A stretch of DNA of 53,267 bases, filler included, from Circinaria calcarea (taxonomy: Eukaryota), in assembly GCA_051942165.1 (NCBI GenBank). It is 3 parts of 3 records of this genome, joined end to end, with 100 filler letters (N's around TTAATTAATTAA, not from the genome) between each part and the next. Parts side by side here need not be neighbours in the genome. Positions count along the whole stretch, not along the records: positions 17,798 to 35,483 come from JAVECS010000260.1; 2 more parts are not named here. One strand, given 5' to 3'. Made by a program: the position numbers and the translations under genes. The first letter of the stretch is position 1. Each line of letters opens with the position of its first letter. The notes under the pieces are model-generated. The model made no database searches. It had not been told where the DNA came from and saw only the letters and a list, made by a program, of their open reading frames with translations. Of this stretch, positions 17,698 through 35,583 are shown in pieces.

Positions 17698-17797
17698 NNN
17701 NNNNNNNNNNNNNNNNNNNNNNNNNNNNNNNNNNNNNNNNNTTAATTAATTAANNNNNNNNNNNNNNNNNNNNNNNNNNNNNNNNNNNNNNNNNNNN
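17698..17797. other. Artificial contig-joining spacer (N44 + TTAATTAATTAA + N44)
   Basis: Exactly 100 bp with a six-frame stop linker in the centre, identical to the spacer at 35484. Confidence 0.97.
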
Positions 17798-29520: not shown

Positions 29521-30376
29521 TGGAGAGGTATGGATGGAAGGTGGTCACTTGGCGTTTATTCGGAGCGAGCATGGTCGATTGGGCGTATGGGAGGTGTGAC
29601 GGGATGGTTAGTATCAACTTTAAACAAGTGAGTATTTCCTTTTTCAAAAGCCGCCTACGTTGAAACGATCGCATACATCAACTTTGGGCAAGATGCAAGC
29701 ATTTCTACCTCCCGACGCTTCCAGCAAATAAACCTTCCCAAGGCCGGATCCCCCCCGAAAATAGCATCTAGAAATATCCCAATCCGCCAACACTTTTCCT
29801 TCCCAACCCATCCAAAATTGCCCCCTTTACCATTCCATCCCAGCACCCATCTCACTGGAAGCTATTCTATCTATACGCTACTAACCTTGACAGTGCAGCC
29901 TCATCACCAGCAAAACGGGCTCACCCCCATCTATCTAAACCTTCCAAACTCTCCCACCTTTATCGTCGATTTCCCCCGGTTCCCGGTTCCGGGCTGAAAT
30001 GGGACCAAGCGTGAAGGCAGCGCCTCCTGTATAACCATTTATGACCAATGGATGCAAAGCTCTGGTATGGAGGGATTGGAAATTCTCCCCTTTCTTGTAA
30101 GGGAAACCCCCCCCCCCACAAAAACTTTTATGATCCGTATCAGGCCCCCCCAAAGCAAGAATAGGCACACCTAGAGGAATATATTCTCCGTTGAGTCTCC
30201 AGTTTGTTAGTTCGGTAGGCGATTCCGTATACCCCCGATACATATAAAAATCAACCATTCCAGCGCATACATATATATACCCCGTACTTGCGCTAACCGA
30301 TGATATTTGGCTGATTAATGCATCGCCGCTTTGCCTCGCGCTAATAACTTTGTGAGCTATCTGCTTGCCTTTTGCT

Positions 30377-30434
30377 CCCCCATGCTCTCCCTTTATTCCC
30401 CCATGCTTTCCCTTTATTCCCCCATGCTTTCCCT
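30377..30434 (+). repeat. 21-bp tandem repeat (CCCCCATGCTYTCCCTTTATT, ~2.8 copies) in a pyrimidine-rich tract (~30365-30535)
   Basis: Units start at 30377, 30398 and 30419. Confidence 0.85.
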
Positions 30435-30553
30435 CTGGTCTCTCCTGCTCCCTTTTGCTCCCCCTAGCTGCTCCCCTACCTGCTCGCCCTCAGCCTCTTT
30501 GTGTGTTTTCTCGTTGCCCGTTTCCCCCGTTGCTACTTGATAACTTTAAACTC

Positions 30554-31990
30554 TCAGCTAAGTGGCGTCAGTGGATATGCGCCTAGCGTTGTGTGCTCTC
30601 GTTGCCGATTGTCTTCCGGAGACCTGTGTCTTGATCGGGGGTTGGATGGTTCCAATTGCCCTTCAATATTTTTGCGCTTCCGAGATGTTTGTGCCTGTCT
30701 CCACCGTTTCCCGGATCGTTTCGCATAAGCAAGCGCTATTCCTGCATCAGCGAAAACCGTGTCTCTCTGCGGATAATGTAGTCTTTGCCAATCTATGGAT
30801 CTGACAGGGGCTTTAGACTTTTTGGCCGCGTTACAGAGAGCTTCGGAGAGTGTATTGATTTGATTCTCATTAAGGCAGTCAATAGTTAAAGAGAAGCGCA
30901 GGTCAAGAAAAGCACGTGCTTCATCATGGCTGAAATCTTTTTTCCGTTCATCGAGCGTACGTTTGAGTGGTGCCCATTCAATCGAGCGGTGGTATTGGTG
31001 ATTATATCGCCAGAATCCACACGGGCGTTGACTTCTTTCGGGATGAAGATTAATTTCCTCGCAGAGCTGACTTGTTACGAACGGTATATCTCCGGACTCA
31101 CCTAATAACTTCTTTAAAGAGCTAATCAAGGCTGTGGTGAATGATCGTGGGCCTGGTCCTTCGGTCGGCTTGTTGAGTGTACTTGCACAGAGAAGCTCAT
31201 ACACTCTAGAATCATCTTGCTGTGGGGCTTTGATAATATTACTAGCGAAACAGGCATCGGCGATGAAAAGCACGTCGCCTTCTGCGTCTTCCGTCAGAGG
31301 CTTCTCAGCATTCGTCCAGCTGGCGGAAGCTTTATATATGTTATCTCTTCTAATTGGTTCTGTGCTGGACCTAAAGGAGGATTGTATTAGTTTATGGAGA
31401 CAAAGGCAAGAATAACAACCAGGTGCAACATACGCATGGAATTCATATTGCCTCGTCACCTCGTTATACCATCCATGCCCTGTATAGTATACGATTAATA
31501 GATTGTGTCGCCCATTGTACTTGTAGACAAAGTCCAAAACAGCCTTTTTTAGCTGAAGCTTAGGAGATGTAGTAATATCTATCTCGAAAATTTCCGTGGA
31601 GTAATTGAAGTTTTGGCGAAGTAGTTCGTCGAGTTCTTTCACCTGTTACAAGATAAGCTCGTCTTTACAGTTCAAGTCGTTTCAGATCGAGAGACTAACC
31701 TCGTCGGCGCTCTTCAACTCGTCCAGCTGTTCCGTCCATTTAACTATCAGTACTGCGACGTTCTGATAGCCTTGCGGAACCTCCATTGCTTTACACATGA
31801 CACTGTTCCATTGCGCCCTCATCTTCGATTGGCTTTCGTCCGTGACGCTTTTTGGAGACATTACTTGAGCTTCTTCGATGCGGCTACTAGAGCCACTCTG
31901 GAGTTCGGTATGAATTACCGCCTTGCCCTCGAAATTGACCAATCTGTCGCCAACGTGAGGCTCCATCTTCTGCGTTGTCATTACCATCAT
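30554..31990 (-). CDS. Caspase-like (clan CD/C14-like) cysteine protease, 2 introns; start at 31990 or 31966
   Basis: GYQNVAVLIVKW...LDEL...|VKELDELLRQNFNYSTE. Catalytic-His strand LLIVYYTGHG (~31470-31500) and catalytic-Cys strand VLFIADACFAS (~31245-31275). Later ELLCAS and GPRSFTTALISSL, as in caspase-fold proteins. Intron 31644-31699 (gttagt...taacag). Confidence 0.75.
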
Positions 31991-32173
31991 ATTGAATAGG
32001 AAAGACGCTCATTCGCAGAGGTTGAAAAGAGCCATAGCCTGACTTTATGGGTGGAAATACGGAATCGTTGATTGACGAATAGGTAGCTTTGCGATTGGGG
32101 GCCAGAGGCCTTTCATGCCGAGCCTCCAGTCTGATTGATCCGATGAATATTCTAGACCCAAGGTGGAGCAAGC

Positions 32174-32292
32174 TTCAGCCCAGCCTTGCATTCAGCCCAG
32201 CCTTACATTCAGCCCGGCCTTGCATTCAGCCCAGCCTTGCATTCAGCCCAGCCTTGCATTCAGCCCGGCCTTGCATTCAGCCCAGCCTTGCA
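32174..32292 (+). repeat. 17-bp minisatellite TTCAGCCCAGCCTTGCA x7
   Basis: Seven head-to-tail copies. Copies 3 and 6 carry CCCGG instead of CCCAG, and copy 2 has TTACA. No spacers. Confidence 0.95.
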
Positions 32293-32857
32293 TTCCGCCT
32301 CAATACATAGCCTCGTGAGCAGATCAGCGTAGCCAAAAGTGTGCGGTGTGTCGCTTCATTGTACCAGATATAGTTAGTGTCTAGGTGATTGACGGTCCAT
32401 TGTTGTTTGTGTATATTACTATAAGATTCCGGTTAATATGACACACAGATAAGAATGTAACCCCACTTTCCCCAAAGCGTACTCACCGCCTCCTGTATAT
32501 TATGCTGTATCACCGCACCGATGATCACTCGAGGAGCCAGTCTGCATACAGCCAATGAACTTGCCAATAAACATATTGTAAAAGCCGCCCTAAGTTGGAT
32601 TACAGCGTACGTTGCTGAGTTGCTCCATGTGTTTTTCCATAGCAGCGCATATAATAAAGGCTTCGGGCTCCAGGCAGCATTCTAGTTAAGGGTAGAAAAG
32701 TTATCATTTGTATATCTGCAGCAGATTGACGACGAAAATCTATCGTGATAGTAAACTACTTAGCATTCATACTAGAATCCATTAGTTCCTTTCATCCCTT
32801 ATCTGCACCGAATTAAATTGATTGCGCCGATTCACAAAGCTTAGTGCAAGGCAAAAT

Positions 32858-33290
32858 ATGACAGATAACTCAACAGTAAGTGAATCTGCCTCGAGCGATT
32901 AGCGTCATACAATGCAGGAGCTGAAGTGTTCAGTCGGGCAATCTTACGCCTGAACAGCAACCAGATATTCACAAATCGAAGTACGACCCACGCGGTGCAG
33001 TTCAAGAGATGGTAAAACCAGAACTAGTTAAGGATTAATTTGATCGCAGCTGACAGAGAAACACAGAGTAAAGCAGCATTCAGAAAGAAAGATAAAGTTT
33101 TGCTCGCTGTCAAAGAGAATGGAATTCAGAAAATGAAACGGATGGAGATCATATGGGCGGAGAAACGTGGGGACACTTTCGTGTATCAGGTTAAGCCTGA
33201 AAATAGCGGTAACGACACGAACTTGTATAAGGATGAGAAAGGCAATAATTGGTTCGAGGAAGACGACCTTGTCTGGGCGCCAAAGGAGTA
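32858..33290 (+). CDS. Small (~105 aa) hypothetical protein, possible SH3/Tudor-like beta-barrel; proposed introns 32876-32933 and 33012-33066
   Basis: ATG at 32858 followed by GTAAGT donor; branch sites gctgaa and gctgac precede CAG acceptors. Spliced product MTDNST|SGNLTPEQ...AVQEM|SKAAFRKKDKVLLAV...FVYQVK...NNWFEEDDLVWAPKE*. The F-xx-D-x-V ... Y-x-V ... W-x-x-E-xx-L pattern suggests an SH3-like barrel. Confidence 0.6.
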
Positions 33291-33311
33291 GCCTTACACA
33301 CCAAAGTCTTC

Positions 33312-33354
33312 TTTGCAAGGGTTCAAATGCCTAAGGCATTTGAACCCTTGCAAA
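33312..33354. repeat. Perfect inverted repeat, 21-bp arms with 1-nt spacer
   Basis: TTTGCAAGGGTTCAAATGCCT-A-AGGCATTTGAACCCTTGCAAA. Confidence 0.95.
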
Positions 33355-33455
33355 ACTATAGCACATGCAGAATTAATATATTATGATTTCTCCTTCGCTT
33401 TGATCGTAGTTCCTCTCAATACCACTTCGTTAATATCTTGACTAAATGGTATGCA

Positions 33456-34740
33456 ATGGCGGCTGTCCGATCATTTATGGAAAAAGTATCGGAGGTTACT
33501 CCAGATTCACCCAGCACTCTCGTAGCCACACATGCTTCCGACTGTGAGGCTGTAGTAGATCAGTCAGGACCGCAAAAAGGTTGTAACCCGTTTTTCCTAT
33601 CAAATCCTTATCTCGAGCTGACGACGCAACAGGAATATGGCGAAAAAGACTGGCACGACTGAGGACTAGAAGATCAACGCCTAATGACGGTCTAGAAGCT
33701 CCCCCTTCGTCCATTATAATTCGCAAATGTAAACCGCCTCGATAACCCCCAGGGAAATCTATGTCGTTACTAAACTACAGATAGTGGAGGAATGCCCGGA
33801 AGGATACCCTCGATTAGCTGCATTTCTGTCTTCGGAGCATAACTTCAGTATCTATCGTGGTTTCACCTACCTCCATGCACGAGTTCTTCTGGGCCTTCAG
33901 GACCAAATTGCAGCATTAGAAAGGGAATTAGATAAGAAAGATCAGCTGGACACGAATAACGGCTTTGGAGACCGATTATATTCAAGAGCAAGAGACGAGA
34001 TTGAGGACACGGACACAAGGTCGAGGTTGAAAATTTTAAATGATATTCGATCAAAACTTGGGGAGTACGGTATGTTTCTTTCAAAATCCTAGAATAAGTT
34101 AGTTGATCTAAGTAATTGGCAGATGATTTTCTCGTCAAAGCTAGGGATATGGTCTCCTTCCATAAGCCGTCCGGAAGGGATTATGGAAGTGTGAGCGATT
34201 GGATAGGAATAAAAAATCCCTTAGTAGCTAAAGAGCAGGCATTTATCAAGCACAAAGAGGACCTTCTCACATTGCATAGCGGGCGTGAATGGTGCGGATT
34301 CGACGGATTTATCGAGACAATTCTTCTGAAGCTCGATTGCCGTCTTATTCAGGTAGTGTCGTCGTGGAATTTTGATTGATATCTAGGCTAATGACCTGCA
34401 GAAACTATTCGTCGCCCCCGAGCTGCGTGATAAGACACTGGATAAGAATATGCATTACTATACAAGGTCGAGAGTGGATAAGCTCATCGGCCTCATTATC
34501 ACAACCATCGTCTTTGTGCTACTAATCCTTCCAGTCGTTGCCATGTATCAACTTAGGGCAATTAAACAAACCCCACAATCGACCTTCAGCGCGGTTGGAG
34601 TGTTGATAGTCTTTACACTCTTGTTCTCTGCTACGATGTCGTTCGTCACAAAGGCACAGAGGCATGAGCTCTTCGCCTCCTCGGCTGCTTATTGCGCGGT
34701 TTTAGTGGTCTTTATTAGCAACTTTGGTAACCTTTCATAG
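33456..34740 (+). CDS. DUF6594-like protein with ~3 C-terminal transmembrane helices; introns ~33580-33632, 33729-33784, 34070-34122, 34353-34401
   Basis: Family signature recalled from memory: EECPEGYPRLAAFLSSEHNFSIYRGFTYLHARVLLGLQDQIAALERELDKKD. C-terminal hydrophobic segments LIGLIITTIVFVLLILPVVAMY, AVGVLIVFTLLFSATMSF and ELFASSAAYCAVLVVFISN. Splice phases are consistent. Confidence 0.8.
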
Positions 34741-35483
34741 AGCGAAAGGGACACAGTGCATCGAGAGGAGCTCGACTGACTGAGCTTGCAAATAAAGCGG
34801 GGAAGTAAACGATTATTGTGCAGTAACAGAAGAAAGAAGAGCAAACCTGAAGAATTTAAGTAAACTAAGAGGTATGAGATCTTATGAACAAGTAAAAGGC
34901 CGGCTTTGTTGAACATGCAATAATGTGTGGTGGCATTCGTGCTATGTACGAGTGTGTAACTTCTAAGCTATCTATGCAACGAAAAAGTGTTTTTATGGTG
35001 TGTGTAGGAAGTGTTGAGCATGGACCTCCTATGTAATACGTGCCTCGGTAAGCCCTATGACTTCCAACAGGCTTTCCATAATAAGGACAGGCGTATCCCT
35101 GCGTACTTTCTCTTGCTCCCGTGCTGCTCCCTCGTGCTCTCCCCTGCTCCCTGCATGCTCCCTCCAAAGCGGCCATGCTCCCTTTCGGGAACGAAAACGG
35201 TAGTTTATGAACGCAAGTTCTGGGAATATGTTATATATATTTTTAGAAAAAAGTCCCAAAGTTCCATCTTCTGAAATTCCCCCCCCTTTTCCTTTTCCGC
35301 TTGCAGCTCCCTTTGACCCTTAGCCTGAATTTGAATTTCCTCCACCTCCCTTTTGCTCAGTAGGTAGGTAGGGCAGGCCCATCTGCAACCATCGACTACC
35401 CTACCCCTCGCTAAACATTATAGGGGGGAGGAAAAGAACTGGCAAACTATTACCCCCCGTTTGTTTCTTTTTCCCCCGAAGCC

Positions 35484-35583
35484 NNNNNNNNNNNNNNNNN
35501 NNNNNNNNNNNNNNNNNNNNNNNNNNNTTAATTAATTAANNNNNNNNNNNNNNNNNNNNNNNNNNNNNNNNNNNNNNNNNNNN
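35484..35583. other. Artificial contig-joining spacer (N44 + TTAATTAATTAA + N44)
   Basis: Identical 100-bp structure to 17698-17797. Confidence 0.97.

Follow-up and report, generated by a model that had tools for sequence, protein, structure and literature searches.

Gene content of the block

The window analysed here (the whole stretch of 53,267 nucleotides, filler included) was derived from Circinaria calcarea, a metagenome-assembled genome (MAG), and contains a block of three tightly packed genes at the right end of its middle contig (~17.8-35.5 kb). All three are intact within positions 30554-34740 and encode a caspase-fold protease, a small Tudor-like protein and a membrane protein of the DUF6594 family (database proteins P0001, P0043 and P0044, corresponding to Q9187_002035, 002036 and 002037, respectively). 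The genes recur together in other genomes, and very probably form a functionally coupled module. The coordinates of the genes and of other features of the region are summarized in Table 1.

The protease gene consists of three exons on the minus strand (31990..31700, 31642..31434 and 31370..30554), separated by introns of 57 nt (GTTAGT..TAACAG) and 63 nt (GTATGT..CTTTAG), and its spliced translation is identical to P0001 (438 aa). The protein reached 21.8 bits with Pfam Peptidase_C14 (PF00656; gathering cut-off 21.4), compared to only 15 bits for the unspliced open reading frame (ORF). The original prediction of an intact caspase-type catalytic dyad was borne out by structural analysis. The AlphaFold 2 (AF2) model of the protease has a mean pLDDT (predicted local distance difference test) of 67.7, exceeding 75 in most 10-residue blocks at residues 71-310, and a Foldseek search with this model identified MALT1 paracaspase as the best match (3v4o_A, E 7.8e-8), with caspase-7, metacaspases, CED-3 and caspase-9 among the further top matches and a total of 295 PDB chains at E<=0.001. 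The His of the YYTGHG motif is His153 (codon 31477-31475) and the Cys of the D-A-C motif is Cys207 (codon 31252-31250), two residues beyond Asp205 (codon 31258-31256). In the model, H153-G154 follow strand 144-151 and C207 follows strand 199-204, which is the arrangement characteristic of the clan CD dyad. Both Cys207 and Asp205 are invariant in all 28 aligned relatives, and His153 and Gly154 are kept in at least 90% of them.

The protease also carries a conserved C-terminal extension of ~100 aa with a basic tail. At the end of the relatives (columns ~570-640 of alignment A1, corresponding to window positions ~30557-30700), a Lys/Arg-rich stretch is followed by a conserved Ser/Thr-Pro motif; these are candidates for a nuclear-targeting signal and a phosphorylation site. 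Of 1705 candidates from a word-indexed search, 42 were relatives at E<=1e-3, and the protease family therefore looks small and lineage-restricted. A pattern scan of 185,579 prokaryote genomes with the protease alignment produced 13 stretches matching the pattern, none of which was a relative.

The small gene has three exons on the plus strand (32858-32875, 32934-33011 and 33067-33291), whose splicing gives a protein of 106 aa identical to P0043. A disordered N-terminus bearing a conserved Lys-Ser motif precedes a five-strand beta-barrel (residues ~35-106; strands 42-49, 52-66, 69-76, 94-96 and 100-102), modelled by AF2 with pLDDT 79.2 overall and ~90 over the barrel; Tyr72 and Trp94 are conserved. 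The barrel was aligned by VIA-align with the chromo-barrel of MRG15 (2f5k_A; Z 8.8, root-mean-square deviation 2.4 over 63 residues) and with a Tudor domain (6if4_A; Z 8.2), and Foldseek matched it to chromo-barrel/Tudor structures with a probability of 1.00 (E 0.04). Since such Z values are common among small barrels, a shared fold is claimed and not a shared function. Thus, the original guess of a beta-barrel-like protein of ~105 aa with an SH3/Tudor fold was well founded.

No Pfam family was found in P0043, and none was matched by more than one of the 35 aligned members of its family at E<=0.1. A word-indexed search with the small ORF retrieved only P0043 itself, which made the protein a candidate orphan. 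This notion was overturned by an exhaustive phmmer search of 1.84 billion representatives, which detected 25 clusters at E<=1e-3 (4 of them at E<=1e-10), mostly of 50-135 aa. A language-model feature search with P0043 (Atlas) gave two further leads: the nearest proteins were cyanobacterial hypothetical proteins of ~115 aa (score 0.92, 185 of 256 features shared), and R67-type DHFR (dihydrofolate reductase), another small barrel, scored 0.86.

The DUF6594 gene was modelled with five exons on the plus strand (33456-33579, 33633-33728, 33785-34069, 34123-34352 and 34402-34740) and four GT..AG introns of 53, 56, 53 and 49 nt, giving a product of 357 aa with no internal stop. This product aligns without breaks to the orthologues P0048 (72% identity over 293 aa) and P0050 (65% over 317 aa). 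The public model P0044 (271 aa) is missing two segments that are kept in orthologues, namely the Arg-rich portion of the N-terminal extension and ~77 aa in the middle of the domain. Pfam PF20237 matched three exons over profile positions 1-91, 88-155 and 156-238 (80.6, 36.9 and 83.7 bits, cut-off 30; E 2.2e-22, 4.7e-9 and 2.5e-23), so that the whole profile (1-238) is covered. The domain is preceded by a disordered basic/acidic N-terminal extension of ~79 aa with conserved Lys, SP and Arg-rich motifs, the Arg-rich stretch lying immediately ahead of the domain. Three C-terminal stretches are hydrophobic, with Kyte-Doolittle values above 1.6 in 19-residue windows, and fall between residues 268 and 354. 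The architecture proposed at the outset (disordered N-terminus, helical core, about three C-terminal helices, DUF6594-like) is thus confirmed by the full-length model.

The only Pfam signal in the membrane protein was DUF6594, with no gasdermin, HeLo or other known pore-former signal. A structure search of the Atlas with orthologue P0050 returned only DUF6594 clusters above a TM (template modelling) score of 0.3; a match to CorA (TM 0.29) is not meaningful. The terms “DUF6594” and “PF20237” were absent from the ~8.4 million full texts searched, and the family is without a described function; nothing relevant was found among the matches listed from the broader metacaspase/Pezizomycotina literature. 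One homolog, P0047 (Xylographa soralifera MMC17_002852), is a 1443-aa public model that combines an RRM (PF00076) with DUF6594, and may be a fused gene call and not a real fusion.

Table 1. Position, strand and basis of assignment of features in and around the block (window coordinates; TRF, Tandem Repeats Finder).
Feature	Position	Strand	Basis
CT-rich tandem repeats 3' of protease gene	30362..30490		TRF
Protease gene, Peptidase_C14-like caspase fold, 438 aa	30554..31990	-	splicing identical to P0001; Pfam; Foldseek
Divergent intergenic region, protease to small gene, 867 b	31991..32857		gene models; TRF
17-mer tandem array in divergent promoter region, 7.4 copies, 93% matches	32174..32299		TRF
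Small protein gene, 106 aa, three exons	32858..33291	+	splicing identical to P0043; AF2; phmmer
Gap between small gene stop and DUF6594 start codon, 164 b	33292..33455		gene models
DUF6594 membrane-protein gene, 357 aa, five exons	33456..34740	+	PF20237; orthologue alignment
Three C-terminal hydrophobic (predicted transmembrane) stretches, residues ~268-354	34468..34728	+	Kyte-Doolittle
Short CT-rich repeats 3' of DUF6594 gene, near contig end ~35484	35114..35163		TRF

Recurrence and conservation of the three genes

Metagenome contigs of the Joint Genome Institute (JGI) were scanned with a peptide pattern covering only the surroundings of the catalytic Cys of the protease, which yielded 35 loci. 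A hidden Markov model (HMM) of DUF6594 (A2), built from database orthologues only, was then run on all six-frame ORFs of these loci. A DUF6594 gene was detected in each of the 19 loci with at least 2279 b of sequence upstream of the protease, always on the opposite strand and 1622-2320 b away from where the protease match starts. In the other 16 loci, which gave no DUF6594 match, the upstream sequence is 1732 b or less and therefore cannot reach the position of this gene. No DUF6594 match was found elsewhere in the 35 loci. Summed bit scores ranged from 228 to 430 in the 17 loci holding the whole domain; in the remaining two, L023 and L033 (scores 91 and 88), the domain is cut by the contig end. 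On the basis of DNA similarity, the 19 loci represent 12 distinct clusters. Recurrent linkage, whose absence had been named beforehand as a refutation of the original prediction, was thus found in every informative locus.

A similar result was obtained for the small gene. Candidate ORFs in the spacer were read out by matched position, since all-against-all clustering was dominated by the DNA-level similarity of related loci. With an HMM of the 35-row alignment A3, one small ORF per locus, on the DUF6594 strand, was identified in the spacer of 23 of the 24 loci whose upstream sequence extends to 946 b or more; in the single exception (L022), the contig ends inside the gene. As 16 of the spacer ORFs are themselves rows of A3, there is some circularity in this count. 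When the HMM was limited to the 19 database small proteins, it still detected the spacer ORF in 14 loci (E<=0.034) and nothing else among 4872 ORFs (E<=10). A tblastn search of the loci with P0043 gave a clear match in L011 only (E 4.9e-5) and a weak positional match in L030; at E<=10, no more than two loci were identified, with 26-32% identity over 69 aligned residues. The gaps between the small and DUF6594 genes, approximate values worked out by hand, amount to ~180-430 b in L006, L009 and L030. The 164-b gap between these genes in the window would fit joint expression.

The pairing is also visible in public records. In Xylographa soralifera, P0006 and P0046 (MMC17_010264 and 010266) lie on one contig of 11605 b, and P0008 and P0047 (MMC17_002850 and 002852) on one of 295993 b. 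This species therefore has two protease paralogues, each with a DUF6594 gene two locus tags off, and a JGI contig repeats the pairing. P0016 and P0049 share a contig of 13095 b. By their names, the hosts presumably span three classes.

Flanking ORFs are common to closely related loci only, and none is shared between divergent loci. The Pfam content of the flanks of related loci is mixed, with no constant fourth gene and no NOD-like receptor (NLR). A single related locus has a HET-domain ORF (L012:15752-16156, plus strand), ~5 kb beyond the protease. An ORF directly downstream of the protease match is common to several related loci (L009:11667-12122, L005:4653-4997, L026:11882-12220 and L019:5318-5698); it is probably the C-terminal exon of the protease itself and not a fourth gene. 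As order, strand and spacing persist while the flanks differ, we conclude that the three genes are retained as a unit.

All three genes show purifying conservation. It is strongest in the DUF6594 partner, whose identity to the window protein ranges from 34 to 60% among the loci compared; the protease shows 30-49%. Comparison of L006 with L008 revealed a uniform identity of 92.8% over 11 kb, and in the pair L009 and L026 the module matched at 74.3% in one 4.4-kb stretch, with flanks at 68-73%. The variability of the module does not exceed that of the flanks, nor is the module hypervariable. This, together with the lack of a recurrent NLR or sensor-repeat gene and the housekeeping surroundings, leans against an allorecognition-type reading.

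Possible mode of action and rival explanations

Asp205 occupies the position two residues ahead of the catalytic Cys (Cys-2). We take the catalytic Cys numbers of MALT1, TbMCA2 and caspase-7 to be those that place a known S1-pocket residue of loop L4 at the same position. In a passage of PMC4357240, this residue is given as Asp462 in MALT1 and Asp211 in TbMCA2, both of which are Arg/Lys-specific, and as Gln184 in the Asp-specific caspase-7. The invariant Asp205 thus leads to the prediction of a basic P1 residue, and a preference of the protease for Arg/Lys is treated here as a lead derived from sequence comparison.

Both partners carry motifs that may be relevant to such a specificity. The Lys-Ser motif of the small protein is present in 12 of 15 distinct loci and in 9 of the 11 database proteins with an N-terminus of at least 30 aa. 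In the DUF6594 protein, [DEH]K followed within 12 residues by SP[STA] was found in 10 of 12 distinct loci, in the window and in four of the five orthologues. On the simplest reading, the protease would have one or both partners as its substrates or pseudo-substrates. Complex prediction with protease residues 48-400 and the small protein, run without alignments, gave a score of 0.00 in both runs, which has no bearing either way.

The block is best explained as a copy of a conserved module of filamentous ascomycetes, whose three genes are passed on jointly. The layout of this module is fixed, with a soluble cysteine protease of clan CD (C14) encoded in one direction, and a Tudor/chromo-barrel-like protein followed by a three-helix DUF6594 protein in the other, and the three products very probably act together. 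We tentatively propose, at somewhat less than an even chance, that the protease would be an Arg/Lys-directed enzyme of the metacaspase/paracaspase type, acting on Lys/Arg motifs in the disordered N-termini of one or both partners and thereby controlling the membrane protein, and that the small protein may serve as a pseudo-substrate, inhibitor or adaptor. Death, stress signalling or membrane remodelling are possible cellular outputs. As to the individual steps, the putative cleavage of a partner by the protease is nearly a balanced question, tilted slightly to the negative, and an output in cell death or defence is unlikely.

Several points weigh against this proposal. The Pfam score of the protease is marginal, and the cut-off was reached by only four of the six family members tested (P0022 scored 20.5 bits and P0008 gave no hit). 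A profile of the protease family gave 0 matches at E<=1 among PDB sequences, and the family is therefore a divergent branch of the caspase fold. The cleavage idea draws on motif conservation and one pocket residue, and the Lys motifs of the partners could equally be binding or modification sites. Moreover, the loci were taken from metagenomes without species assignment, and close relatives may be present among the 12 clusters. The scan was keyed to the Cys motif, so members that have lost this Cys would be missed.

If some loci do belong to related species, the three genes might be unrelated and adjacent merely through microsynteny by descent. Such conserved synteny without a functional link is disfavoured and seems highly improbable, given that all 12 clusters keep order, strand and spacing although their flanks share no ORFs, that the partner always belongs to the same DUF6594 subfamily (as judged from the scores of the 17 whole-domain loci), and that DUF6594 matches are confined to this position within the 35 loci.

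The module might instead be a co-regulated membrane-associated complex or signalling device whose partners are no substrates, and in which the DUF6594 protein would anchor the protease, the Tudor-like adaptor would read modified Lys/Arg or a peptide, and the targets would lie elsewhere (e.g. in stress or development). The purifying conservation of all three genes, highest for DUF6594, and the lack of excess variability are in line with this. The Ser/Thr-Pro motifs in the N-terminus of the DUF6594 protein and in the protease tail would fit kinase control, and, as the titles of structure entries indicate, Tudor/chromo-barrel folds are typically reader or adaptor modules. However, Lys motifs in both partners of a predicted Lys/Arg protease are more simply explained as cleavage or pseudo-substrate sites, and we regard this alternative as possible, if rather doubtful.

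The original prediction envisaged a cell-death or non-self system analogous to a gasdermin/protease pair, in which the protease would remove the N-terminal ~70 aa of the DUF6594 protein to release a membrane-damaging effector restrained by the small protein. Consistent with this are the tight linkage maintained while the flanks change, the presence of the protease/DUF6594 pair on two contigs of one Xylographa genome and the small, lineage-restricted protease family (42 relatives); in addition, fungal death pathways are described in part of PMC12881547 as clusters of two or three genes comprising a protease and a membrane effector. On the other hand, neither Pfam nor the Atlas search with P0050 revealed a gasdermin, HeLo or other pore-former signal in DUF6594, the protease lacks sensor repeats and an NTPase domain, and its vicinity has no recurrent NLR, a HET-domain ORF being present in one locus. 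Furthermore, the module is not hypervariable in either pair of loci compared (L006/L008 and L009/L026), it resides among housekeeping genes in C. calcarea, and the DUF6594 partner, the presumed effector, is the best conserved of the three. Taken together, these observations render such a system improbable.

The resemblance to gasdermin loci is partial. The analogy with HET-Q1 drawn in the original prediction holds insofar as a protease gene adjoins a membrane-protein gene in 19 of 19 loci, but not with regard to the effector; as the DUF6594 protein is not a gasdermin, the analogy is functional at most. To our knowledge, few direct substrates and partners have been described for fungal caspase-like proteases. 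The module shares with fungal gasdermin clusters (Podospora HET-Q1/HET-Q2, with CHAT- or S8-protease partners) the compact arrangement of genes for a protease and a membrane-targeted protein, and some partner proteases of fungal gasdermins are caspase-like, according to passages of PMC12881547 and PMC8851545. Unlike gasdermin clusters, the module encodes a helical membrane protein of the DUF6594 family with three hydrophobic helices at its C-terminus, its protease consists of a stand-alone C14-type domain with no repeats or NLR module, and it includes a third conserved gene, which encodes the Tudor-like protein. The evidence for linkage is strong, and the module is best described as a variant of the fungal protease/membrane-protein clusters.

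Each product also has more distant relatives. The protease resembles metacaspases and MALT1 (C14, subfamily B) in its caspase fold, His-Gly and Asp-x-Cys motifs and acidic Cys-2 residue, but differs from them in its marginal Pfam score, the absence of a sequence-level PDB match and the conserved C-terminal extension with its basic tail; we know of no metacaspases with fixed gene partners. The membrane protein matches Pfam DUF6594 over the full length of the domain, yet within DUF6594 at large it represents a subfamily distinguished by its conserved N-terminal extension and by the fixed presence of the protease and small-protein genes next to it. The small protein has the five-strand SH3-like barrel of royal-family domains (MRG15, MRG2, RBBP1 and the 53BP1 Tudor), but it shares no Pfam family with them and is a stand-alone domain of ~70 aa with a conserved N-terminal linear motif. 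A bacterial parallel is provided by Craspase of type III-E CRISPR systems, in which the caspase-like protease TPR-CHAT is encoded beside two small partners, Csx31 and the substrate Csx30, the latter controlling a downstream response. In contrast to the fungal module, Craspase is prokaryotic and RNA-guided, and its partners have unrelated folds.

The module could provide a substrate for a caspase-fold enzyme, a function for DUF6594 and a role for a new Tudor-like family. A cell-death output would extend the regulated cell death of fungi by a new class of effectors; with any other output, the module would still represent a conserved protease-controlled membrane pathway of lichen-forming and dothideomycete fungi. 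It is conceivable, as a long shot, that it constitutes a third type of protease-gated membrane executioner beside gasdermins and HeLo/MLKL-like proteins, in which a metacaspase/paracaspase-like cut behind a conserved Lys/Arg of the N-terminal extension would free or relocate the DUF6594 protein, and the Tudor-like mini-protein, bearing the same Lys motif, would act as a pseudo-substrate inhibitor. Were this executioner reading true, it would provide the first function for the large DUF6594 family, and fungi would have a caspase-type switch for death or stress whose substrate is defined.

Surroundings of the block

The block is bracketed by pyrimidine-rich repeats, as originally noted (Table 1), but these are not conserved. 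TRF analysis of 19 related loci detected no counterpart of the bracketing repeats or of the 17-mer array; the repeats are therefore not part of the module and are treated as local low-complexity DNA. Consequently, the idea that the bracketing repeats form a mobile or defining boundary was rejected.

The window is composed of three contigs, joined by N-runs with a six-frame stop linker (TTAATTAATTAA) at 17742-17753 and 35528-35539. Because of these contig joints, genes separated by a linker are not neighbours, and no true adjacency to the module exists beyond ~35484. A gene to the right of 35484 is thus ruled out as a neighbour of the module. This applies to a 308-aa open frame on the minus strand of the next contig (36440-37366), which shows weak similarity to Pfam APH (phosphotransferase enzyme family; E 1.1e-5).

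On the left, the neighbour of the protease gene encodes CDC31/centrin, whose top sequence match in the PDB is yeast Cdc31 (2doq_A, E 6.8e-38). With this match and the intact gene models, the initial description of three packed genes next to CDC31 is confirmed. The same contig also encodes other housekeeping proteins: the 51-kDa subunit of NADH dehydrogenase, the nucleoporin Nup98-96 and a short-chain dehydrogenase.

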